Virus record (IMG/VR): IMGVR_UViG_3300037483_000299
Coordinates: 1 to 64,000 of that record
Length of the DNA: 64,000 nt
Source of the DNA: a virus
Direction: 5' to 3' (one strand)
Within the stretch, counting starts at the first letter, position 1; every line of letters begins with the position of its first letter. Made by a program: the position numbers and the translations under genes. The notes beneath the pieces are model-generated. The model was not told the DNA's origin, made no database searches, and worked only from the letters and a program-made list of their open reading frames with translations. Below are positions 5,309 through 60,616 of the stretch, in pieces.

Positions 5309-5731
5309 ATGGCGACGAATGCGTTTAACGGCCGGCTCATCCGCTGTCAGGTAGCGGCCACGTCCAGTGGGTCGCTGGTGAGTTTCGGTGGGCTTCAGGG
5401 CGCAACCCTAACACTCGACCGACCGGAAATCTCGGTGGTGCACCAGGACACGTCCGGCTGGGAACAGACCTTGGCGGGGATTGCCAAGTGGACGGTACGG
5501 GCTCGGACGGTACATCTCTCGACGGCGGCGACTCAGGAACAGGACACGCTCCGGGCGGCGGCCCTCGCGGGCACGCGCAAGTGGTTTGCCTTCATCAGCA
5601 GCACGTCAGCCGGTGGGCAGACGTGGAAGGGGAATGGCTACGTCTCTGGGTTTGACCTCGACGGCGACCAGACCTCACCCGTGATGCACAACTTTAGTGT
5701 GGCCGGGGACGGCGCGATTACGGAGTCCTAA
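5309..5731 (+). CDS. Tail tube (major tail) protein
   Basis: 140 aa; D.SGWE..LAG...W and KGNGYVSGF...FSVAGDGAI sipho tail tube pattern. Confidence 0.8.
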   Translation: MATNAFNGRLIRCQVAATSSGSLVSFGGLQGATLTLDRPEISVVHQDTSGWEQTLAGIAKWTVRARTVHLSTAATQEQDTLRAAALAGTRKWFAFISSTSAGGQTWKGNGYVSGFDLDGDQTSPVMHNFSVAGDGAITES

Positions 5732-6051
5732 TGGCGACGCTGCAACTGAACGGGACGAGCTACACGCTGGCCTACAAGCCGTGGGGAGTGATCCGCCGGC
5801 TTCACAAAGAGCAGGGCGTCAATCTCCTCGACTTGCTGGGGGATGAGCAAGCCGCAGATCGGATGATGGACCCGACGACCTTGAGCGCCCTAGTCTGGGG
5901 GGGATTGATCCATGCCCACCCGGAGATGACCCTGGAACAGGTAGAGGGCTGGATGGGGTTGGACAATCTCGCAGTGGTCTCTCAAGCCGTGGCGGGCGCG
6001 ATCAAGGAAAGCCTGGAGGGAGCAGGGGTCGCCGCAAACCCTACGACCTGA
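5731..6051 (+). CDS. Tail assembly chaperone (gpG-like)
   Basis: Between tail tube and tape measure; slippery site near the 3' end. Confidence 0.75.
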   Translation: MATLQLNGTSYTLAYKPWGVIRRLHKEQGVNLLDLLGDEQAADRMMDPTTLSALVWGGLIHAHPEMTLEQVEGWMGLDNLAVVSQAVAGAIKESLEGAGVAANPTT

Positions 6052-6236
6052 TCCCACGGCTGGAACGCGCAGCGATGCGTGCGGGGCTGCGTCCGTGGGA
6101 GGTTGCGCGATGCAGCCCCGGTGACTTGCTCGGCTGGTGTCAAGCGCACTACGGGGAGGACGCCCCGGATGACGGGATGAGCCAGCAGGCGAAGGCGGAC
6201 GAACTGATGCGGAGGCTGCGTGGCCCAGGTCGGTGA
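6036..6236 (+). other. -1 programmed frameshift site A-AAC-CCT and gpT-like extension
   Basis: XXXYYYZ heptamer AAACCCT 6036-6042 in the correct phase; the -1 frame reads YDLIPRLERAAMRAGLRPWEV... to TGA 6234-6236. Confidence 0.75.
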
Positions 6237-30952: not shown

Positions 30953-31318
30953 ATGGCTGAAACCGCCAAAAAGATGGTCAAATCCGGGAACAAAACCGGG
31001 AATGGCACTATGCTGTCCCCGAGAAACGGTGCTGTCTGCCCCACCGGTGCGCATCCGGGAAACACTGGGGGAAAGCCAGGGCGGTCCGGGCGGAAGGCGA
31101 AGGATTTCCGCCAGCTCTGTGGCGAGGCGGTGGACAAGTACGCCCGTCCGAAGGCCGCCAAAGTGCTCAAGACGCAAGAGCCGGGGGATGGGGAGAAGGC
31201 CAACCCGACGTGGTGGGCAGCCGCGGCGTACCTCGCCCGGTACGGCCAGCCGGAGCCGCCGAAGGAAGTCAACGCCAAGATTGGCGGGACGGTCATCCTG
31301 AAGGCCGTCCGTGAGTGA
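30953..31318 (+). CDS. terS: Terminase small subunit
   Basis: PGNTGGKPGRSGRK motif; overlaps the large terminase start. Confidence 0.65.
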   Translation: MAETAKKMVKSGNKTGNGTMLSPRNGAVCPTGAHPGNTGGKPGRSGRKAKDFRQLCGEAVDKYARPKAAKVLKTQEPGDGEKANPTWWAAAAYLARYGQPEPPKEVNAKIGGTVILKAVRE

Positions 31319-32852
31319 AGAGTACGTCGTCCCGATCCCGGATCTTCTGGCCCACCAACACGAAAGCGCCTACCATCCCGCCCGGTTCAAGCTCCTCTGT
31401 AAAGGCCGGCGGTCCGGCAAGGACATCGAAGCGTTCAACGTCTCGTGGTTTGGGCATGGACCGGACCGGAAATGGCCGGGCATCGTAGACGGCTGGGATG
31501 TGGCGTGGCTGGCCCCGGATTACCCTCAGGCTAAGAGCGTGTGGCTCCAAGAGATTCAACCCCGGTTTGAGGGCATTCCTGGGGTCAACCTGAACGAGAC
31601 CGAGCACCGGGTGACTATCGAGGGTCACGGGTCGCTGGTCCTCCGGTCCGCTGAGAACGTGACGAGCCTCCGGGGATTAGGGAAGCGGCTGATTGGCGTC
31701 GTGGTGAATGAGGCGGCGCACCTCGATCTCGCCGATGCGTGGCGCCGAGTCATCAGGCCAATCCTCATGGACAACAAGGGCTGGGCCTACATCATGTCCA
31801 CCCCGAACCGTGGCGCCGACGGCGGGGTGGATGAGGAGGGAATCCGCCGGGTCCCGAGCTACTTCAACACGCTGTGCGAGGAAGTCCGGGCGGGGAAACG
31901 GGGCACGGACTGGGCCGTGTGGTTTGGGGATGCCCGCGAGAACCCCAAGATCCCAGCGGACGAGTTCCAGGCGTTGCTCGCCGAGTATCCCGAGGGATCG
32001 GTGGCGATGCAGGAGGAAGTCTACGCCCTCCTGCTGCCTCCGGGAACGGGGCTGGCGTTCAGCGAGTGGCGGGACGACGTGCATGTCTTGGACACGTTTA
32101 CGGTCCCGCGACACTGGCGCTATGCCGGTGGGTACGACTGGGGCTACTGGAGCCCGAGCGCCTTTATCCTGTTCGCGCAGGGGGATGATGGGGCGACGGT
32201 GGCGGTGGCCGAGAAGAAGTGGACGCAGAAACTCGCCTTTGAAATGGGTCAGGACATCGCCCGGATGTGCCAGGCGGTCGCCCCCATGCCGGTTGAGTAC
32301 ATCGCGGCGGATTCGTCCATGTGGGGCGTCCAAGCCCAGAAGGGCTTTCCGAACATCGCTGAGGAGCTACAAGCCGGGATCAACGCGGAGTGGGATCGGG
32401 CTCGGGAGGCTGGCTGGAAAGGCCCACTGCGAGCGCCGATGCTTGTAGCCATCGCGAAGGGCCACGACTCGCGCATCGCCGGCGCGACGCTGTTCCACCG
32501 CTACCTCAAGTGGACGGCGGAAAAGGATGGGACCATTCTCCCGTTCAACCTGCCGCGCTTGCGATTCACGAAAGCGTGTCCCTACCTTGTGGCGTCCATT
32601 CCCCGACTGCCGCCGAGCCCGACGGACAACGAGGACGTGGATACGGACGCCGACGATCACGGGTACGATGCGGCCCGATACTACCTGATGAGCCGGCCGC
32701 CGTTGCCGGAGGCGCCGAGAGCGGCCAAGTCGGCGGACGATCATCCCGGGCTGACGGAGCGGTATCCGGGGCTCGTGGAAGGGACGAAACGGGAGCCGGT
32801 AGGGCTCAACAAGTACACGCCCAGCAAGGTGCGAACGGAGGCGGGATGGTGA
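31311..32852 (+). CDS. terL: Terminase large subunit
   Basis: Walker A GRRSGK, Walker B VVVNEAA, STP motif, nuclease GYDWG and DHGYDAARY. Confidence 0.92.
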   Translation: MSEEYVVPIPDLLAHQHESAYHPARFKLLCKGRRSGKDIEAFNVSWFGHGPDRKWPGIVDGWDVAWLAPDYPQAKSVWLQEIQPRFEGIPGVNLNETEHRVTIEGHGSLVLRSAENVTSLRGLGKRLIGVVVNEAAHLDLADAWRRVIRPILMDNKGWAYIMSTPNRGADGGVDEEGIRRVPSYFNTLCEEVRAGKRGTDWAVWFGDARENPKIPADEFQALLAEYPEGSVAMQEEVYALLLPPGTGLAFSEWRDDVHVLDTFTVPRHWRYAGGYDWGYWSPSAFILFAQGDDGATVAVAEKKWTQKLAFEMGQDIARMCQAVAPMPVEYIAADSSMWGVQAQKGFPNIAEELQAGINAEWDRAREAGWKGPLRAPMLVAIAKGHDSRIAGATLFHRYLKWTAEKDGTILPFNLPRLRFTKACPYLVASIPRLPPSPTDNEDVDTDADDHGYDAARYYLMSRPPLPEAPRAAKSADDHPGLTERYPGLVEGTKREPVGLNKYTPSKVRTEAGW

Positions 32853-34469: not shown

Positions 34470-36842
34470 GTGGCGGATCAATTCGACGGCTTAGAGGATC
34501 AGGGCAACTTCACGCCCGGCTCCACGGCATCCGACGACGTGGCGCGGGAGAACCTACTCACGCTCGCGCAATCGGACCCGGAAGGCTGCGCCCGCCGGCT
34601 GCTAGCCGATTGGGACGCCTCAAACAAGCACGTCAAGAGTCTCAAGGCGCAATGGAAGGTGAACCGCGCACGCGCGAAGGGGTTTACCGGCGTCTCCCTC
34701 ATCAAGCAGCAGGACGAGAACAAGGCATACATCCCCATCGGGGCCCGGCAGTCTGTTGCCGGCATGAACAAGGCCGCGCGGCTCAAGCGGCGTCTCCGGG
34801 CCCAGATGTTCGCCGATCCCGCCAAGCCAGAAGCGACCCCGAGTACAGATGAGGACCAGGACCGGGACGCGGCTGAGCTGGCGACGCGGGTCCTCGAGGA
34901 TCTGTGCTCAGAGGGCAATCTCGATTTCAACTTGAAGGCTGGCGATGCCTTTGACCTCGGGTCGGATTACGGGTCCGGGTTCATCCGGTTCTGGGTTGAT
35001 CCCTACGGTGGCGGGAATAAGCCGAAGGACATCTACGCCTCGCCGTTCGCGGTCACTGAGCAGGAGCCGTTTGCGCTGGGGCCGGCCGGGGAGAAGGCCC
35101 CGCCCCGGCTCCGGTACGTGACCGTCAAGGGCCAGATCGTGGACGATCCCAAGCAGGCGGCGCGGGTCTGGCTGCCCAAGCTCCGGGACGAACTCCTCAC
35201 CGGGCGGCAGGTGCGCTTCCTGCCCCATACGGCCCGGGATCTCTGGGATGCAGACGCGGTGATGGTGGGGGCGATGGTGCCGCTGGGGGTGGTGAAGGCC
35301 ATGTTCCCCGAGCTGGCCAAGAAGCCCGATGTGGAGATCCAGAAACTCACCGGCTATCGGCCGCAGGAATCGGCCGACCTGTTACCCTCCGGCAAGAAGG
35401 ATCATCGCGGCTCGGGGGATGTGGACGCGCAGTACGTCTTCGTGCTCTCCCGCTATCACAAACAGTGTGCCGACTACCCGCAGGGCGCGTATCTCGTGCT
35501 GGTGGGCGAGTCGTATCTGGCCCATACCGGTGAGTGGTACGATACCGAGGCCGATCAGCCGCTCGACATTCCCCTGACGCAGTTCGGGCACTACCACGAG
35601 GAGGACAATCCCTACAAGCAGGGGACGATGGAGCTGCTGGGGCCGGGGAATGAAGTGCGGGCCATGATGCTCGGCGCGATGCTGGAACATCTCGACAAGT
35701 TCCTCAACCGCCGCATCTTCGTCCCGCTCACCTCCGTCCTCAAGCCGGAACAACTCCAGTCCGAGACCGCGAGTGTCATTCAAATCAACCCCGGCGGAGA
35801 GCCGTTCTACGAGCAGCTACCGGATTTCCCGGTCTCGGCCGAGAAGATGTATGCCATGACCGGGGACGACATGGACGATGAATCCGGGTTGCAGGAGAGC
35901 GGGCAGGGCGGCGAAGTCCCCAGCGTCACGTCGGGCAAGCAGTTGACTCAGATCATCGAGCAGGTGGTGGCCGGGCTGTCGGAGCTACGGGAGAACACGA
36001 TCCGGGGCTTCGTCCGCGGCTGGCGCATCATGCTCCAACTCACCCGGGCCTATTACTCGATGCCCCAGAAGATCAAGTGGATGGGAGAGGATGGGGGCTA
36101 CAAGGTCAAGGAATGGACCGGCTCGGACCTGGGGGGCACTCGGGACGTGCGGATGTTGAAGGGCAGCTTTACGCAGTTGACCCCCGTCCACAAGGCGAAC
36201 CTCGCGCTGACCTATTTCGGGGTCCGGGATGCTCAGGGCCAGCCGTTGCTCGGGCTCCAAGATGTGCGGCACCTGATTACCGGGGAAGTCGGGCCCTGGC
36301 TCGGGATGCGGGACGATCCCCACCGGATGCGGGTCAAGCGGCAGATCAGCCAGTGGTCCGAGGGTCCCCCGGAGGGCTGGCAACCGCCACAGGCGCCGAC
36401 CGACCCATTCACCGGCCAGCCGGCGGTTGATCCCAATACCGGGCAGCCGGCCCAACCGCCCCCCGATCCGACGTTGACCAGCATCTTCGCCCCTGTTCCG
36501 GTGGACGAGGAACAAGCGGTGGCGGTGATTCGGACGGAGGAGCTGGGCCGAGCGATGGCGGGCGGTCGGTATGCTAGGATGCCCCCACCGTGGCAGGCTG
36601 GGCTCCAGATGGCCTATCAGACGGCCCGGCAGGCGGCAGGGCAGGCCACGGTCCGGGAACAGCAGCAGGCCGCCCAGGCTCAACAACAGCAGGCCGTCCA
36701 GGTGGAGAAGGAGAAAGAAGCGGCCAAGGTGGAGGGGAAGATCGCGGTCGAGCGGGCGGTGACGCAGATGGGGGGCATGGGTGGGGGAATGATGAGCAAG
36801 CCGGGAGACGGGCGGCCGGTGATGGGTGGGATGACGCGCTAG
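34470..36842 (+). CDS. Portal protein (P22-like, Gln-rich C-terminal barrel)
   Basis: 790 aa; DEDQDRDAAELATRVL, GSGFIRFW, TSGK..., Q-rich tail; between terL and scaffold. Confidence 0.85.
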   Translation: MADQFDGLEDQGNFTPGSTASDDVARENLLTLAQSDPEGCARRLLADWDASNKHVKSLKAQWKVNRARAKGFTGVSLIKQQDENKAYIPIGARQSVAGMNKAARLKRRLRAQMFADPAKPEATPSTDEDQDRDAAELATRVLEDLCSEGNLDFNLKAGDAFDLGSDYGSGFIRFWVDPYGGGNKPKDIYASPFAVTEQEPFALGPAGEKAPPRLRYVTVKGQIVDDPKQAARVWLPKLRDELLTGRQVRFLPHTARDLWDADAVMVGAMVPLGVVKAMFPELAKKPDVEIQKLTGYRPQESADLLPSGKKDHRGSGDVDAQYVFVLSRYHKQCADYPQGAYLVLVGESYLAHTGEWYDTEADQPLDIPLTQFGHYHEEDNPYKQGTMELLGPGNEVRAMMLGAMLEHLDKFLNRRIFVPLTSVLKPEQLQSETASVIQINPGGEPFYEQLPDFPVSAEKMYAMTGDDMDDESGLQESGQGGEVPSVTSGKQLTQIIEQVVAGLSELRENTIRGFVRGWRIMLQLTRAYYSMPQKIKWMGEDGGYKVKEWTGSDLGGTRDVRMLKGSFTQLTPVHKANLALTYFGVRDAQGQPLLGLQDVRHLITGEVGPWLGMRDDPHRMRVKRQISQWSEGPPEGWQPPQAPTDPFTGQPAVDPNTGQPAQPPPDPTLTSIFAPVPVDEEQAVAVIRTEELGRAMAGGRYARMPPPWQAGLQMAYQTARQAAGQATVREQQQAAQAQQQQAVQVEKEKEAAKVEGKIAVERAVTQMGGMGGGMMSKPGDGRPVMGGMTR

Positions 36843-53479: not shown

Positions 53480-55128
53480 TGGATGAGCAAGCGATTCTCG
53501 ACGCTGCCGCCCGGATGCTCGGAGACGGGATTGATCCGGCGAAAGTCGATGCGGCCGTGCGGCGCCGGACGGGCATGAGCCTGTCGGAACTCGGGGCGAA
53601 ACTTGGCAACGTGCCACGCGATACCCCCGAAGCGCCGAAGCCATCAGCCGGTGAGCAGCGGCAAGAGCGATTCCTGCGGGCGACCGGCGTCACTCCGGCT
53701 GGCTCCGAGGGTGCGGAGAACGCCCAGGATCAGACCCGGCTCATGGCGCATGGCGCGGCCTTCGGGCTTACGGATGAACTGCGGGGCGCGATGGCAGGTG
53801 TGATCCCCGGGGGTGAGGGGTACACCGAGGCCCGGGATACCGAACGCGAAGCTCTTGCGGAAGCCCGGGGCCGTCGGTCCCCGTTGGCGGCTGGTGGGCT
53901 GGAAGCGATGGGCGGGCTTGCTGCGCCCGGCATGGGCGCGGCGCGCTTCATCGGGAAAGGTGTTGGCACGGGGGCCAAGATGCTCCGCGGGGCTGCGGCC
54001 GGCGGGACTGCGGCGGCAGCCTATGGAGCTGGTGGGGAAGGCGGGCCTACTGAACGGGGCGTGGAAGCCCTCAAGATGTTTCCCATTGGGGCGACGTTGG
54101 GGGGCGTGGCCTCAGGGGCGGTCCCGCTCGCCAAAGCCGTAGGCCGTGGGGCGTATCATGGTATGGGGTTCATCGGTCGGGCTACTAGGGAAGTGAGTCG
54201 GGAACTCCGGGGCCCCCTCCGAAATGCCGAGTCTTGGGTCCGGGAACAGGCTCGGGAGGCCGGAACTAAACTGACCCCCGCGCAAGTCACCCGTCGGGCG
54301 GAAATCCGGTTAGCCCAGCTTGAGGGAGACCTGATGGCCCCGATGCGGCCCAAGCCGCCCCAGAAGCCCCCAGAGGCCCGGCCAGACACCTACGAGGGGT
54401 TGGTGGCGGCTCAGGCGAAGATTGAGCGGGAGCTGGGGACGACGGAGGCCGCCCGGCCCGCCCAGACCGGCCAGTCCGCCCATCCCCAACCGCCCCGCCG
54501 ACCGAGTGACTTACGGATGGAGCCCGTCGCGTCCGCCACGCCGGCCGGAACTGTGCGGATGGCCAAGCCGCCGCTGCGGCTGGAGTCCTCCTTGCCGCCT
54601 CAACTGGCCGAGAGTCCTATCGGGCGGGCGCTTGATCCGGTGGCGCTGACTCGCCAGCAGCCGCACGCGACGCAAGCCCAGATGGCGGTCCGCAGCGCGC
54701 CCATTCTCTCCCGGGTGAGTGGCCTAGACGAGATTCGGGCGGTGGGGTTGAAGGCGTTTCAGGAGGGCGATCAGGCCACGCTCGACGCGGTGAACAGCGT
54801 GCTCAAAGAGCGGGGCATGGCGTTTGACTGGACCACGATCGCCGAGGAAGCGGCGAAACAAGGAAGGCGGGGACGCGTGCCAAACCCTAAGCCGGGGGGC
54901 GCCCCAGAAGTTTCACGCCCCGTTCCGTCGGTAGGCCGCACAATGACGGCGACGGTGGAGGGGCGAAGCTACGAAATCCCTGAACGGTGGATGCAGGGTG
55001 CCACACTTGGTGGTCGGCGTTCTCAGCAAGAAGCAGTACAGCTATGGCACGAGCAGGCATTGGCCGAAGAGGCGGTGACTGGAGTACCAACATCTATCCC
55101 ATCGCGACAATCCCGGAACCGCCGATGA
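53479..55128 (+). CDS. Large DNA ejection protein
   Basis: GAAFGLTDEL motif and Gly/Ala-rich hydrophobic region. Confidence 0.6.
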   Translation: MDEQAILDAAARMLGDGIDPAKVDAAVRRRTGMSLSELGAKLGNVPRDTPEAPKPSAGEQRQERFLRATGVTPAGSEGAENAQDQTRLMAHGAAFGLTDELRGAMAGVIPGGEGYTEARDTEREALAEARGRRSPLAAGGLEAMGGLAAPGMGAARFIGKGVGTGAKMLRGAAAGGTAAAAYGAGGEGGPTERGVEALKMFPIGATLGGVASGAVPLAKAVGRGAYHGMGFIGRATREVSRELRGPLRNAESWVREQAREAGTKLTPAQVTRRAEIRLAQLEGDLMAPMRPKPPQKPPEARPDTYEGLVAAQAKIERELGTTEAARPAQTGQSAHPQPPRRPSDLRMEPVASATPAGTVRMAKPPLRLESSLPPQLAESPIGRALDPVALTRQQPHATQAQMAVRSAPILSRVSGLDEIRAVGLKAFQEGDQATLDAVNSVLKERGMAFDWTTIAEEAAKQGRRGRVPNPKPGGAPEVSRPVPSVGRTMTATVEGRSYEIPERWMQGATLGGRRSQQEAVQLWHEQALAEEAVTGVPTSIPSRQSRNRR

Positions 55129-55463
55129 TCCCCCGCCTCGTGGCCCTTGCCCTGCTGGCTGTGGTCGTGCTGATCGCCGCCGGCCCGCTGCGCCCGCTCT
55201 ACCAGCGGGTCGAGGCGTGGACGTGGGCGCAGGACGAACGGACCTGGGTGGCGCACGGCCTGATCCTGCTGATGGTCGGATTCAGTAGCGCCGTACTGAT
55301 CGGGTGGTTCGGTCTCGGGTTCACCGGCTGGGGCATGGGGTGGTACGCGCGGCGGGAGAACGTGTTCACCGGCGAGCCGATGAGCACCGACAACTGGATG
55401 GACTTCCTGGCCCCTCAACTCGGGGGCCTGCTGGGGTTCGCCCTGGGGCTGGTGGTCCGGTGA
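55125..55463 (+). CDS. Multi-TM membrane protein
   Basis: ATG 55125; three to four hydrophobic segments. Confidence 0.6.
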   Translation: MIPRLVALALLAVVVLIAAGPLRPLYQRVEAWTWAQDERTWVAHGLILLMVGFSSAVLIGWFGLGFTGWGMGWYARRENVFTGEPMSTDNWMDFLAPQLGGLLGFALGLVVR

Positions 55464-55747
55464 CGCCGGCCGAACTGACGGCGATCACGGCCGGCGTCGG
55501 CCTGTTGGGTGGCGTCGGCGGCTGGTTTCTCAAGGCCAAGACGGAGCCGAAGGCCCGGAACGGGAACGGACTGGGGAAGGAGCTTGCTCTAGCCATCACG
55601 GCCGATGGGGAACGGACCCGCCAGACGATGAAAGACGAGGGGGAGCGGACGCGGGAAAACACGGTGAGCCTCATCACGGCACTCCAAGCGCAAACGGAAC
55701 TCGCGATGATCCGGGCGGCACAGATGAGCCGGCAGGGGGCGGCGTGA
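55460..55747 (+). CDS. Single-TM coiled-coil protein (holin-like)
   Basis: GTG 55460; N-terminal TM. Confidence 0.5.
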   Translation: MTPAELTAITAGVGLLGGVGGWFLKAKTEPKARNGNGLGKELALAITADGERTRQTMKDEGERTRENTVSLITALQAQTELAMIRAAQMSRQGAA

Positions 55748-56073
55748 TGGCCCGTATCCTGATTGTCGAGGATGAGGCCAGCCTGTTGCGGGTGTTGCTC
55801 ACCTACTTGACGGAGATCGAGCAGCACGAGGCGGTGGGCGTGAGCACGGCCGACGATGCCCGGGACGCGGCCCAGCTGGGTCCCTGGGACATGGTGGTCA
55901 CGGATCGGATGTTGCCGGAGGGGGAGGACGGGGAACGGCTCCGGAGCGCCTTTCCCGGGACGCGGTTCCTGACCATGACCGGGGTGGACCAGTGGGAGGC
56001 GGATGTGCGGAAGCCCTTCAGTCTCGAAGAAATTGGCGCCGTCATTCGGGCGCGCCTCGCGGTGGCGCCATGA
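55747..56073 (+). CDS. Stand-alone response regulator receiver (CheY-like)
   Basis: ILIVEDE, DMVVTD (phosphoacceptor), MTG, KPF all present. Confidence 0.85.
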   Translation: MARILIVEDEASLLRVLLTYLTEIEQHEAVGVSTADDARDAAQLGPWDMVVTDRMLPEGEDGERLRSAFPGTRFLTMTGVDQWEADVRKPFSLEEIGAVIRARLAVAP

Positions 56074-56240
56074 GTGTCGAGCTATGGGCGGGCCTGATCG
56101 TGCTGCTTCAGGTGGTGGGCCTCCTCTTGAAGCTGGAGGAGCGGGCGCAGCGACGGAAGTTCCAGGTAGATCTTGAGGAGTGGCGACAGACGATGCGACG
56201 GGTCCGGCAACCAGACCCCAACATGTGCGCGGAGGAGTGA
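56070..56240 (+). CDS. Small single-TM/coiled-coil protein
   Basis: MSVELWAGLIVLLQVVGLLLKLEERAQRR; ATGA-coupled. Confidence 0.6.
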   Translation: MSVELWAGLIVLLQVVGLLLKLEERAQRRKFQVDLEEWRQTMRRVRQPDPNMCAEE

Positions 56241-56241
56241 C

Positions 56242-56523
56242 GTGAATCCGAAACTGGAAGCGGCGAAAGAGCGGCGGCGGCTCGCGCTCACCACGCCGGA
56301 CGTGCAGAAGTTCGAGAAGTCGCTGCCCGCGATCATCGCCGCGGTGGTGCGGTTCGGCGGGCCGGAGCACTGCTTCCTGAACATTCACAGCACCGTGGCC
56401 GAGACCGGCGCGCCCGACGCGTGGTGGGAAGTGGTGCCCACGGATCGGGCGAAGCTCGCTGATGGCGAGGACCCGCCGAGCGGGGACGAGAGCCATCCGT
56501 GCCCACCCTTCCTGGACTGCTGA
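56242..56523 (+). CDS. Small protein ending DESHPCPPFLDC
   Basis: GTG 56242 after GGAGGA. Confidence 0.6.
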   Translation: MNPKLEAAKERRRLALTTPDVQKFEKSLPAIIAAVVRFGGPEHCFLNIHSTVAETGAPDAWWEVVPTDRAKLADGEDPPSGDESHPCPPFLDC

Positions 56524-57075
56524 GTGCCGCCAGCATGGCAGGAAGTCTTTCACCTGGCCGGCCTACTCCCGCTCCTGATCCTGGGCGGGCTACACCTCTG
56601 GGGCGTCCGTCGGGATTCTCGGGACTGGTGGCTGGCCTCTGGCTTTGCCGTCTCCTGGGTGGCGGACTTGGCAGCACATTGGGCCGATCCCTGGCTCGTG
56701 TCGCACGTCTATTCCGTGGGGCAGGCGGGATGCCTGTACGGGGCGCTCACGACGCCACGCCGCGCCTCCTGGCTGCTTGGACTGACGGGCCTCGTGGCCG
56801 CGTGGTCGCTGTCTGCCGGACCCGTGACCGCGCCGGCCGTGGCGGTGTGGGTGGTGAGCGCCGGGGTGATCTTGTCCCTGATCTGGAAACGTCGGGATCT
56901 CGGGCTCCGCTGGTGGGGGCTGCTCGCGTACTTCGGGCTCGGGCTCGCGTTCCGCGTGTGGTTCCCGCTGGCCTTGGACGATGCGGAGACGTTCCGGGTG
57001 GCCTGGCTCGGCTATCAGGCGTGTCGGATGGCGGGCCTGTCGCTGGTGAGCTGGGCCCTCTTGAGAGGACCGTGA
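56524..57075 (+). CDS. Polytopic membrane protein (about 6-7 TM)
   Basis: 183 aa, almost entirely hydrophobic helices. Confidence 0.7.
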   Translation: MPPAWQEVFHLAGLLPLLILGGLHLWGVRRDSRDWWLASGFAVSWVADLAAHWADPWLVSHVYSVGQAGCLYGALTTPRRASWLLGLTGLVAAWSLSAGPVTAPAVAVWVVSAGVILSLIWKRRDLGLRWWGLLAYFGLGLAFRVWFPLALDDAETFRVAWLGYQACRMAGLSLVSWALLRGP

Positions 57076-57076
57076 C

Positions 57077-57364
57077 ATGGCGCGCCTGAGCGAAGCCACC
57101 AAGCAGACCATCGGCACCGCGCTCACGCTGCTCGGCAAGGTGCCGACCACGCCCGCGCGCATCATGGTGACGCTGTTGCTGGGATTCGGGACGGCGGTCC
57201 GCTACTGGCTGGCCGCTCCCGGTGGCTGGTCGCCGTCCTGGGAATGGCTGGGCTTCCTGTCGGTGTGGGCGGGAATCGACGCGGCGCAGTTCTACGGGAA
57301 ACGGATGACTCACATTCCCCCTGCGGCGGAGACGCCTGGGGCACCGGAGGCGACACCTGGATGA
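57077..57364 (+). CDS. Two-TM holin-like protein
   Basis: Two hydrophobic helices and a basic C-terminal patch. Confidence 0.45.
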   Translation: MARLSEATKQTIGTALTLLGKVPTTPARIMVTLLLGFGTAVRYWLAAPGGWSPSWEWLGFLSVWAGIDAAQFYGKRMTHIPPAAETPGAPEATPG

Positions 57365-57533
57365 CGCCAAATGTAGTGCTGTCGCTACGGTTTCTGTCCG
57401 TCAGGGTCGGACCAGCCCGAGCGTCCGTCCGAGCCAGAGAAGCGCCACGATGGGGGCGAGGTGAGGCTTCCGGGCAAGCCAGCGAAGGATCTGCATCGAG
57501 ACTCTCATGATCAATGGAAAAGGACGCCGCTGC

Positions 57534-58619
57534 ATGAAAAGTGCCACCGTATTACTCGCCACGATGTTGGCGCTCACCAGTCCCCTGCACGCCCAGGATA
57601 CCGTCCAGGTCAGGCCAGGAGCGATGGTCTGCGGCGGCTGGGTGGTGCCTGACACCACGCCCGGGACGGTGTTCCGCTGCCAGGTGAACGGGCCGAACGA
57701 TATGCGCCGGGTGCGCGCAGTTGTCGTTGTGGTCGTGGTGGACAGCGTGCCGGTGCTGCTGCCGCCACCTCCTCCACCCCCGGTAGACACGCTGCCGCCC
57801 CCGCCACCACCGGACACCGTGTCAGCAGGGACCGCGCCAACCTACGATCCGGCGCGGGACCTCCTCTTGGTGGCCGACAACTTCGACATGTGGGACGGCT
57901 TCAATCGGCGGAACGTGCCTGGGGCGCATCTGCGGGTCTATCGGGACTCGGCCATCGGCGGCGGAAACCCGGCGGCGACGGTCAGTTTCACGCCGGGCCG
58001 GACGGGTCAGGCCGTCCGGATCACGTATCCGCAGCAGGTGGGGACGGCGCAAGGCCGGCAGTATGTCGGGACGGTCAATGTCTCCACGCCGGCGGGCGTC
58101 TCGAGCTTCCAAGAGTTCTGGGTGCGGCTCTCGTCTGGCGCCTCGCCCACCGGGACCGGGCCTAAGTGGGTGCAACACTACCACGCGACCCTCGGCACCG
58201 CGCAGCGCATCCAGATCGGGTCCTTCAAGTTCCCTTCTGGGTCAGCCTCACTCGACGGGATGCCAGCTCGCGATTACTGGCACGTCAACAGCCTCGCCAA
58301 CTCGCTCGCGCTCTCGCGGGGCGGGCCGCGGTGGCGGGACATCGCGGATGGCGCGTGGCATCAAGTCACGACGGAGGTCCGGGCGCACACCGCGCGCGGG
58401 TCCGGCGATGGCGTCGCTCGGATGTGGATCGACGGGACGCTCGTAGTAGACCTATCGGCGACGGGTGTGCGGGCGGGCTGGACGGACGCGAGCGAACTGG
58501 CCCAGCTCGTCGCTGGCGTGGCCATCACCGACATCCACCTGGGCGACCTGCTCTATCTCGGGACGGTGCCCACCTGGACGCTGGACGTGGATGACTTCCG
58601 ACGGTGGCGGGCGCGGTGA
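57534..58619 (+). CDS. Secreted polysaccharide-lyase/LamG-like protein with Pro-rich linker
   Basis: Signal peptide MKSATVLLATMLALTSPLHA-Q, poly-Pro linker, domain paralogous to 44631. Confidence 0.7.
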   Translation: MKSATVLLATMLALTSPLHAQDTVQVRPGAMVCGGWVVPDTTPGTVFRCQVNGPNDMRRVRAVVVVVVVDSVPVLLPPPPPPPVDTLPPPPPPDTVSAGTAPTYDPARDLLLVADNFDMWDGFNRRNVPGAHLRVYRDSAIGGGNPAATVSFTPGRTGQAVRITYPQQVGTAQGRQYVGTVNVSTPAGVSSFQEFWVRLSSGASPTGTGPKWVQHYHATLGTAQRIQIGSFKFPSGSASLDGMPARDYWHVNSLANSLALSRGGPRWRDIADGAWHQVTTEVRAHTARGSGDGVARMWIDGTLVVDLSATGVRAGWTDASELAQLVAGVAITDIHLGDLLYLGTVPTWTLDVDDFRRWRAR

Positions 58620-58955: not shown

Positions 58956-59792
58956 CTACACCGCATGAATCGCCTTCAGGAACCCGCAGTCGTGTCCGTG
59001 AAAGTCGGTGAACTCCACGATCTGGAATCCTACCGCGAGCAGGCGCGCGGCGAGATGCCGGGCCCGGTCCCGTTTCTCAGCCGGCGGGGCGTGCCATTCG
59101 ATGGCGAGCTGGCGGATCTGGCCGAGCAAGAGATCGGGCGCCGCATCGAGAATCCCGTACTCCGCCCCCTCGCAGTCGAGCTTCAGGAAGTCCACCCGGT
59201 CGAGCTGATGCCGGGCGAACAGGGAGGCGAGTGAGGCCACCGGCACGGTCATCGTTCCGGTGGGGTGCGCGAGGCGGGCCGGGTCAGTGGTGTGCAACGC
59301 CCCCTGTGCGCCCTGGTAGAGCGTGAGCTGGCCATCGGTGTCGCCGACGGCGGAGGCCACGATGGAAGCCGCGAACCCGTTCCGTCGCAGATTGTGGGTA
59401 AGCAGCGCGAAGTTCTCCGGGTCGGGCTCGTAGGCGATCACCCGCGCGTCCAGCGAAGCGGCGAGGACGGAGAACGCCCCGATGTTCGCCCCGATGTCCA
59501 CCACGACATCCCCCGGTGCGATGGTGAGCCCGTGGGTCAAATACTCTCGATCTGCGGCGATCTTCCGGACAATCCCGGCGTCCCAGGTTTCGCGGCGCAC
59601 ACGGAAGCGCAGACCGCCCGCCGTCACGGTGCGATACGTGAGGCCGGCCCGCTTCAGGCCGCGCTCCAAGCGCACCGCGACGGCATGGGGCAGTTCGCCA
59701 CGCGCCACGGCCCGGAGCCCACGCCAGGTCGCAGAGCCGTCGGGCTTGGGCTGTACCGGCTCCACCACACGGACAGGATCAGGGATCGTCAT
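58956..59792 (-). CDS. FkbM-family methyltransferase
   Basis: VVDIGANIGAFS, AYEPDPENF, LKLDCEGAEY, IEWH; likely start ATG 59792. Confidence 0.9.
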   Translation of the reverse strand: MTIPDPVRVVEPVQPKPDGSATWRGLRAVARGELPHAVAVRLERGLKRAGLTYRTVTAGGLRFRVRRETWDAGIVRKIAADREYLTHGLTIAPGDVVVDIGANIGAFSVLAASLDARVIAYEPDPENFALLTHNLRRNGFAASIVASAVGDTDGQLTLYQGAQGALHTTDPARLAHPTGTMTVPVASLASLFARHQLDRVDFLKLDCEGAEYGILDAAPDLLLGQIRQLAIEWHAPPAEKRDRARHLAARLLAVGFQIVEFTDFHGHDCGFLKAIHAV

Positions 59793-59798
59793 GCCGAC

Positions 59799-59910
59799 AG
59801 GATGCGCGATTCTCGTGCCCGGAACAACTACCACTAGTGGTAGCCGTAGACCTACCACTAGTGGTAGGGCAAAATGCGAGACTTCCGAGCCCCGCGTTCC
59901 GGGGTAGAAT
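59799..59910. promoter_or_regulatory. Second copy of the divergent promoter region, with two palindromic operators
   Basis: Minus strand TTGTTC-17-CATCCT; CTACCACTAGTGGTAG at 59828-59843 and 59852-59867; plus strand TAGAAT 59905-59910. Confidence 0.65.
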
Positions 59911-60616
59911 GGCGGAGCCGGGGGGCCGGACGAATACGGAAGGGAGCCGCCTATGGAGTCGTCGCGTGGTGTGTGGCTGGACCCCTCTTGCTGCGCCCGT
60001 AGGAAGTGGTAGGTTGGGAGACGTTCAACCGGGCGTTGTGCCACCGTTCACCCGGGGTGTCGTGGGATTCGGCGCCGCTCACTCAACGGGATGGCTTGTC
60101 CCTGGCGGGATATTCAAGAAATCCGGGCGCTGACCCACCTCCGTCAACCCGGTCCCGTGCCACCATGCTAGCGACAAGTGCAGGCCGCCTCGTACGGCCG
60201 AAAGAACAAGCTCGACCCTGGGGTCCCTGGTACGGGCCACACCCAAAGCCGAGCTTGCGAGCCACAGTCCCTGGCGGGGTAAAGCGGCACCCCCAACCTA
60301 CTAACCCGGGGCCTCAGTGTAAAGGCACGGGATAGGGAGGAAGCGCCCTAGGTAGCCGGTTGCTGGGGGCATTCCGGGGGCTCTGGGTCGCCGAGAGTGG
60401 CCCTTCCCGCCACATGCAAGTTCTTGCAGTCTAGGGGTGCAAAACCTGTCACTTGCGTTTGCAATGTGAGGGCCTAGATTGCCTCCACCATGACATGCCC
60501 ACGTTGCAAACGACCCATCGCCCCCTGGCCGCTCAGGCGACCCAATCTCTGTAGCCCGGCCCATTGGGTTCGGTGCATCCGGTCGGACCTCCACACTACC
60601 CCACAGTAGCGTTGCA

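Follow-up and report, generated by a model that had tools for sequence, protein, structure and literature searches.

We identified a previously undescribed, tightly linked set of three genes in the lysis region of many uncultured phages. The copy studied here, from a soil phage, lies in a 64,000-nucleotide stretch of viral DNA (the window), the first 64 kb of the IMG/VR record IMGVR_UViG_3300037483_000299, which is 94,089 bp long, has a GC content of about 65%, is classed as linear and has an estimated completeness of 88%. The conserved unit comprises, in this order, genes for a stub protein with a single transmembrane (TM) helix, a small soluble protein with a cysteine-containing C-terminal tail (the Cys-tail protein) and a seven-helix membrane protein (the 7TM protein). 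In the window all three are encoded on the + strand. The 56-amino-acid stub (56070..56240) has a TM helix at its N-terminus and a charged helix at its C-terminus, the 93-amino-acid Cys-tail protein (56242..56523) ends DESHPCPPFLDC, and the 7TM protein (56524..57075) is 183 amino acids long. The Cys-tail gene begins 1 nucleotide past the stop codon of the stub gene, with a GGAGGAG-like site upstream, and the GTG start of the 7TM gene directly follows the Cys-tail TGA. We refer to the window cluster as unit A and to a second copy in the whole 94-kb record (G000) as unit B.

Related loci were obtained by locus fetches and with a degenerate DNA pattern that returned 7 true and 8 false loci; an initial metagenome scan for module loci had given 0 confirmed. 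A true small protein is present in 15 loci, which form the basis of the pairing count. The Cys-tail and 7TM genes are adjacent in all 15, the 7TM homologue being directly 3', and the junctions between them are coupled in the relatives too. The initial annotation of this DNA had grouped the two proteins in one module, and the relatives show them to be a co-inherited pair. The 7TM copy of one locus (L023, 5-235) looks truncated: it matches over about 77 residues only, is followed by a gene on the opposite strand and may be a truncated copy. A protein with the stub architecture (single TM helix and charged helix) precedes the Cys-tail protein in 11 of 11 aligned loci (the window and 10 others). 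Six of the 11 stubs contain an LV-x-x-FG-x-Y motif, which the window stub lacks. The stub, Cys-tail and 7TM proteins had no match in Pfam, NCBIfam, PHROGs, PADLOC or solved structures, and the flanking TM proteins likewise had none in the family scans. Profile searches of the PDB with both family alignments (Cys-tail and 7TM) returned nothing meaningful, and look-ups in the ESM Atlas led to unnamed clusters only.

The Cys-tail protein consists of a small beta-alpha-beta-beta domain, an acidic linker and a C-terminal D-E-S-H-P-C-P-P-F-L-D-C tail. A profile built from six small proteins recovered 72 homologues (E-values down to 4e-26), nearly all of 66-93 amino acids, and the window protein matches the profile of its own family with an E-value of 5e-12. 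The homologues end in (P/D)-I-N-D-S-(H/R)-x-C-P-P-x-C, with an optional proline after it, or in L/I-N-D-S-H-V-C-P-G-S-P-G-C. Since 72 homologues share the C-terminal motif, it is not a chance feature. Both cysteines and the Pro-Pro are invariant in an alignment of 41 sequences, in which the asparagine and serine are at least 90% conserved. In the 72 listed homologues the motif either makes up the final 5-7 residues or has no more than about six non-hydrophobic residues after it. A C-terminal sorting signal (exosortase, rhombosortase or MYXO-CTERM) was ruled out, as no TM helix or basic cluster follows the motif. We also rejected N-glycosylation of the N-D-S sequon, which is absent in the window copy, and metal binding via the tail histidine, which is arginine in about half of the members.

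The AlphaFold2 model of a typical family member has a mean predicted local distance difference test (pLDDT) score of 83 and contains a strand-helix-strand-strand domain and a low-confidence acidic linker, with the tail coming back as a short strand. Fold searches with this model gave Z-scores of at most 3.2 and no fold match. Reading of the sequences revealed no signal peptide or N-terminal hydrophobic signal in the small protein. None of the results shows it to be a secreted peptide signal. A 134-amino-acid metagenome protein (P0083) carries a tandem duplication of the beta-alpha-beta-beta domain with the Cys tail on the second copy only. In locus L013 the small-protein gene (478-712) is split in two frames (478-621 and 560-712), by a frameshift or a sequencing error, and the 7TM and receiver genes there are intact.

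The 7TM protein is modeled by AlphaFold2 as seven helices (pLDDT 90), in agreement with the six to seven TM helices first read from its sequence. A word-indexed search with this protein gave 14 relatives. An exhaustive profile search identified 403 clusters at 50% identity, of which 133 had E<=1e-30, and the lengths in the best 150 of the 403 clusters range from 115 to 233 amino acids. A dedicated search found no longer, fused 7TM forms, which is weak evidence. Conservation across 150 representatives, with a median identity of 31% to the window protein, is concentrated at P16 (98%), W35 (91%), S44 (99%), D48 (97%), Y63 (93%), Q67 (100%), F137 (95%), G138 (91%), G140 (89%), Q165 (91%) and R168 (92%). 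The protein contains an F-G-x-G motif, and S44, D48, Y63, Q67, Q165 and R168 form a buried, conserved polar cluster. No cysteine or histidine is conserved, with no column reaching 80% among the 150 representatives. Lysine and arginine residues together number 2.4, 1.3, 1.5 and 0.8 per sequence in loops 1, 3 and 5 and the C-terminus, whereas the N-terminus and loops 2, 4 and 6 have 0.2-0.5. By the positive-inside rule, this distribution indicates an N-out/C-in topology, which would put the polar cluster in the middle-to-outer half of the bundle. The best fold matches to the 7TM model had a VIA-align Z-score of 13.4 (180 residues at 3.5 Å) and a Foldseek E-value of 0.03, values within the noise of helical bundles. 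The three C-x5-C (CPGSP) tails all pair with a 7TM loop 2 that is longer by 3 residues, a pattern that is confounded by phylogeny and broken by window copy A.

The trio is embedded in a cluster of eight + strand genes (55125-57364) with overlapping or abutting stops and starts, larger than the four genes first noted. The four open reading frames (ORFs) picked out initially, the receiver and the trio, lie where they had been placed and are tightly coupled. The junctions are GTGA at 55460, GTGATG at 55744, ATGA at 56070, TGA-C-GTG at 56242, TGA-GTG at 56524 and TGA-C-ATG at 57077. The GC content at third codon positions (GC3) is 0.82-0.86 across the cluster genes, well above that at second positions (GC2, 0.44-0.61), so that the ORFs look like real coding genes; for the four ORFs the ranges are 0.84-0.86 (GC3) and 0.44-0.55 (GC2). 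No promoter-like sites were found in the cluster, and terminator-like sites were no more frequent than in shuffled sequence.

The cluster begins with a gene for a 112-amino-acid, polytopic, holin-like small membrane protein (55125..55463, +), the conserved left flank of a variable cassette. This protein has no match in Pfam or PHROGs and is 93% identical in amino acids (89% in nucleotides) to the unit B copy at 77753-78089. Its stop codon overlaps the GTG of the next gene (55460..55747, +), which encodes a protein of 95 amino acids (the TM/coiled-coil protein) that has a TM helix at its N-terminus, a long charged helix and no family match. Directly 3' of this gene is that of a short, stand-alone CheY-like receiver of 109 amino acids (55744/55747-56073, +), its start coupled to the preceding gene through the GTGATG, and the ATG of the stub overlaps the receiver TGA. 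The last gene of the coupled cluster (57077..57364, +) starts 1 nucleotide after the 7TM stop and encodes a 95-amino-acid membrane protein with no match in Pfam, PHROGs or NCBIfam; in unit B this position is taken by a 73-amino-acid membrane protein.

The right flank (57507..58619, +) encodes a protein with a Sec signal, a poly-proline linker and a jelly-roll/lyase-like domain (weak Polysacc_lyase match, E-value 0.05). Its N-terminal part is 86% identical in amino acids and 88% in nucleotides to unit B. Its C-terminal domain is 49% identical to a gene of the virion module of the same phage (44772-45596) and 28% identical to a gene 3' of the module in L013 (2520-3410). Directly past the late array lies a gene for an FkbM-type methyltransferase on the - strand (58956-60044; PF05050, 5e-18).

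The 7TM protein of unit B (78633-79112 of G000) is 39% identical to the window copy and is preceded by a 77-amino-acid protein ending D-N-S-T-V-C-P-P-I-C; unit B contains no receiver. The two units match at the nucleotide level in two places only, at 55125-55461/77753-78089 (89%), within the gene for the 112-amino-acid membrane protein, and at 57565-57811/79641-79887 (88%), the signal-peptide part of the secreted protein. Between these flanks the alleles are strongly diverged, with 29-39% amino acid identity. The 1.5-2.1-kb membrane-gene cassette between the anchors has been exchanged.

The receiver is genuine, though divergent. Against Pfam Response_reg (PF00072) its score is 27.1 bits, below the cut-off of 30.2, over profile positions 1-68 of 111, and it matches phrog_731 (6e-10) along with many weak NCBIfam response-regulator models. 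The key residues E9-D10, D54, T79 and K90-P-F are all present on direct reading, so that the domain is intact, as described initially. The spacing from Thr to Lys is 11 residues, and the alpha4 region is shortened; in CheY this spacing is about 22 residues, roughly double. It is the only receiver in the record, and its one PADLOC match, to PDC-M60C, is weak (E-value 8e-4). The receiver of L013 is 38% identical to it (5e-15), shares the key residues and the short spacing, and passes the Pfam cut-off with 37.4 bits. A close relative of the L013 receiver occurs in L022. In both of these loci the receiver is 3' of the 7TM gene with a TM/coiled-coil gene immediately before it; in the window the corresponding pair (55460-55747 and the receiver after it) comes before the stub. 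Between the window and L013, the TM/coiled-coil proteins show weak similarity (E-value 0.002). The sub-module of TM/coiled-coil and receiver genes has joined the trio in two lineages and in two arrangements, and is a repeated accessory. Because of this recurrence, we consider the receiver probably to be functionally tied to the module.

No histidine kinase was found with the module. HATPase_c (PF02518) gave no match at E<=0.1 in the whole 94-kb record or in six other module-bearing viral records, with all controls matched, which extends the absence first noted for the window to the entire record. Those six records, among them a complete genome with terminal repeats, also contain no receiver. 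The association of the homologues with kinases, which the initial annotation had named as a check, was therefore not found in any of the seven viral records. A degenerate kinase phosphotransfer helix was considered for the stub and the TM/coiled-coil protein and rejected. The stub, for which a comparison with kinase N-termini had been suggested, shows no kinase features, and the histidine of the L013 and L022 TM/coiled-coil proteins is an aspartate in the window protein. The latter lacks any histidine and thus is not a phosphodonor. As no kinase was found, any phosphoryl input would probably come from the host.

In the record, the large terminase (31311-32852) and the portal (34470-36842) are encoded upstream of the cluster, which is placed at the distal end of the + strand late gene array, beyond large unannotated virion-like genes. 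Every related locus with enough flank is likewise a phage late region, with tail or large structural genes upstream and small TM proteins around the trio. The trio travels with holin-like genes across phages that differ in their structural modules and endolysin types. In five related loci an endolysin gene follows at a short distance: PF08924 in L004 and L009, Amidase_2 in L010 and L011, and an endolysin PHROG in L017. Within the lysis-region cluster of L007, an HNH_3 endonuclease gene (5594-6133) is inserted right after the 7TM gene.

Relatives are rare in bacterial genomes. A scan for the Cys motif in one genome per GTDB species gave a single match, on a 5.4-kb phage-like contig of a Vicinamibacterales metagenome-assembled genome (MAG), and the 7TM profile matched 1 of 401 Acidobacteriota genomes, the same MAG. 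One relative pair with adjacent locus tags is labeled as a Gemmatimonadaceae MAG. The host names attached to relatives are thus Gemmatimonadota and Acidobacteriota only, and the host assignment derives from these two MAG labels only. Neither the region nor the 7TM protein had a relative among 50,697 deposited phage genomes (blastn and tblastn), and the receiver had generic matches only.

Given the position and coupling of these genes, we propose, tentatively and at somewhat below even probability, that the locus is a phage-native, late-expressed inner-membrane module whose products form a lysis-timing (antiholin-like) complex with an optional phospho-input. The acidic, Cys-looped tail may dock on the cytoplasmic side of the 7TM protein, which is rich in arginine. 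A complex of the tail protein, the 7TM protein, the stub and neighboring holin-like proteins would then set or gate the time of holin triggering, acting as an antiholin-like device or lysis clock. The receiver, in the absence of a phage kinase, might be phosphorylated by host kinases or acetyl phosphate, and this input could couple the membrane module to the physiological state of the host. By reading, the stub and the flanking TM proteins have features of holins: they are small, with at least one TM helix and a charged C-terminus, and an endolysin adjoins in the five loci named above. The link to lysis timing made in the initial annotation is therefore reasonable as far as the surrounding holin-like genes and the endolysins of the relatives are concerned.

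Several observations weigh against a lysis-timing role. In this record none of four common endolysin families (Amidase_2, Phage_lysozyme, SLT and PF08924) was detected, and in units A and B and in L013 the gene after the cluster encodes a lyase-like protein, with a Sec signal in A and B, and not an endolysin. No component matches known holin, antiholin, spanin or endolysin families. The 7TM protein is atypical for a holin, without holin matches in PHROGs or Pfam, and a seven-helix protein of 180 amino acids with a near-invariant polar core is more enzyme-, transporter- or receptor-like than a hole-former. By its predicted topology the conserved pocket is in the outer half of the membrane, and the small protein has no export signal, so that cytoplasmic docking would leave the pocket unexplained. 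Gene position alone also fails to separate a lysis role from other late membrane functions.

These points leave room for a late or constitutive membrane module that has nothing to do with lysis, a swappable cassette beside the lysis genes serving superinfection exclusion, envelope remodeling or counter-defense at the inner membrane. The exchange of the cassette between conserved flanks in units A and B would suit such a role, as would the secreted lyase-like protein after the cluster and the lack of the four common endolysin families from the record; accessory genes also often adjoin tail-fiber and lysis genes. We nevertheless regard it as unlikely. The genes are coupled to their neighbors with the same GC3 and no promoter-like sites or terminator-like sites above background, the trio accompanies holin-like genes across otherwise different phages, and PADLOC returned nothing beyond the weak receiver match. 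The outer-half pocket invites a different explanation, in which the tail, looped by a disulfide outside the cell (for example after the lysis of neighbors), is a ligand sensed by a periplasm-facing 7TM pocket. The signal would pass to the membrane partners, and to the receiver where present, allowing infected or lysogenic cells to sense the lysis of nearby cells by kin phage. The N-out/C-in bundle, the resemblance to receptor-type 7TM folds (Z-scores of 11-13.4 over about 180 residues), the recurrent receiver, the longer periplasmic loop 2 opposite all three CPGSP tails and the two co-resident units with diverged alleles between near-identical flanks are consistent with this idea. Such Z-scores are, however, within helical-bundle noise, and the loop correlation is subject to the phylogenetic confounding and the window exception described above. 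In addition, the small protein lacks a signal peptide and any processing motif, its length of mostly 66-93 amino acids is not that of a short peptide, and most loci lack a receiver or other transducer. We therefore consider a ligand-receptor pair rather improbable. In its most elaborate form it would be a new phage sensory pathway, in which a receptor of G-protein-coupled receptor (GPCR) topology reads the disulfide-looped tail released from lysing kin-infected cells and retimes lysis through small membrane partners, and in some phages the receiver, with diverged alleles preventing cross-talk; this we hold to be slightly less probable again.

The strict gene pairing and the precursor-like layout of the small protein (a structured N-terminal domain, a linker and a short invariant C-terminal core) also recall peptide maturation, with the 7TM protein as a membrane enzyme that cyclizes, lipidates or cleaves the Cys motif, as in AgrB/AgrD or ribosomally synthesized and post-translationally modified peptide (RiPP) systems. 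Its near-invariant polar cluster could then be an active site. Yet the 7TM protein has no conserved Cys or His and hence no AgrB-type catalytic pair, and it resembles no enzyme family or solved structure. The motif is at or within a few residues of the C-terminus, which leaves no extended recognition tail for removal, in the AlphaFold2 model the tail forms a strand on its own domain, and no exporter, protease or other RiPP enzyme is nearby, making this role very improbable. Least credible, to the point of being hardly tenable, is the proposal of the initial annotation that the locus is a captured, reduced bacterial peptide-sensing two-component system that taps or jams host signaling. The intact receiver in the cluster and the related receivers beside the pair in L013 and L022 fit it. 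The bacterial loci invoked for it, combining a regulator with a single-TM kinase, did not turn up on any chromosome searched (GTDB motif scan and 401 Acidobacteriota genomes). No HATPase_c or fused longer 7TM form was detected, most loci have no receiver, and every locus with a judgeable flank is phage-like. A classical two-component system was rejected on the same kinase result in the seven viral records, the receiver residues themselves being in place. Because the 7TM protein is rare in bacteria, HATPase_c is absent and most loci lack a receiver, the module looks phage-native and not captured.

Returning to the lysis-timing reading, we know of essentially no characterization of the lysis cassettes of phages that infect uncultured soil diderms. 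The analysis defines two families, of at least 72 members and of 403 clusters at 50% identity, that have no annotation or relatives of known function. They are always adjacent, occupy a fixed genomic position, have sharply invariant residues and come with a third component whose position is conserved as well. Should the module time lysis, it would represent a novel kind of lysis regulator built around seven helices and, in some phages, the first lysis module to be connected to a receiver that can be phosphorylated. If the two proteins are instead a ligand and its receptor, they would constitute a new form of phage sensing. Either way, the tail cysteines, D48 and R168 of the 7TM protein and D54 of the receiver are concrete targets.

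The module shares parts of its design with several known systems. In the agr cassette, AgrD is the propeptide, AgrB a polytopic peptidase, AgrC the kinase and AgrA the regulator. As there, a small protein with a Cys-containing C-terminal core is encoded beside a polytopic protein of about 180-190 amino acids, a receiver is sometimes nearby, and the alleles of the pair diverge between otherwise similar elements. In contrast to agr, the 7TM protein lacks a conserved His/Cys pair (150 representatives), the gene order is reversed with the small protein first, and the small protein is a folded domain of 66-93 amino acids with the motif at or near its C-terminus. The phage module also has no kinase (HATPase_c search), its receiver has no LytTR output domain, and its context is a phage late region in diderm-associated metagenomes. 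An agr-type system was rejected on catalytic residues, kinase and regulator type. Arbitrium-type communication was rejected as well, since the small protein has no N-terminal hydrophobic signal and its partner is a 7TM protein, not a tetratricopeptide repeat (TPR) receptor.

Among receptor-type 7TM bundles (class C GPCR TM domains, GPR155/LYCHOS, microbial rhodopsins and ACER3), seven helices and the inferred N-out/C-in topology are shared, and about 180 residues superpose at 3.4-3.9 Å with Z-scores of 10-13.4, within the range of unrelated helical bundles. Identity is only 7-12% and Foldseek E-values are 0.03 or worse, and the phage protein has neither the retinal lysine, nor the CREST His/Asp metal site, nor G-protein machinery. 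The receiver resembles the single-domain regulators of the CheY/DivK/CpdR type in standing alone, in its acidic pair, phospho-Asp, Thr and Lys-Pro-Phe, and in that it would act by protein-protein contact; CpdR is among its weak best NCBIfam matches. It differs in its length of 109 amino acids, its 11-residue Thr-Lys gap, its shortened alpha4 output face and its score below the Pfam cut-off, as well as in being phage-encoded, in always following a TM/coiled-coil gene and in having no cognate kinase in the element.

A functional parallel to the role we favor is the lysis-inhibition complex of phage T4, in which the holin T is acted on by the periplasmic antiholin RI and the cytoplasmic RIII. We detected no sequence or fold similarity to its components. 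Where T has a single TM helix, the module described here has a seven-helix membrane partner with a near-invariant polar core, the invariant Cys-Pro-Pro-x-Cys tail has no counterpart in T4, and the lysis function is proposed here from gene context. In both cases, however, the genes belong to a late set located with lysis genes and encode no enzymatic domains, and small soluble cytoplasmic and small membrane proteins act, or in the phage described here are proposed to act, on a membrane protein to set the time of lysis.

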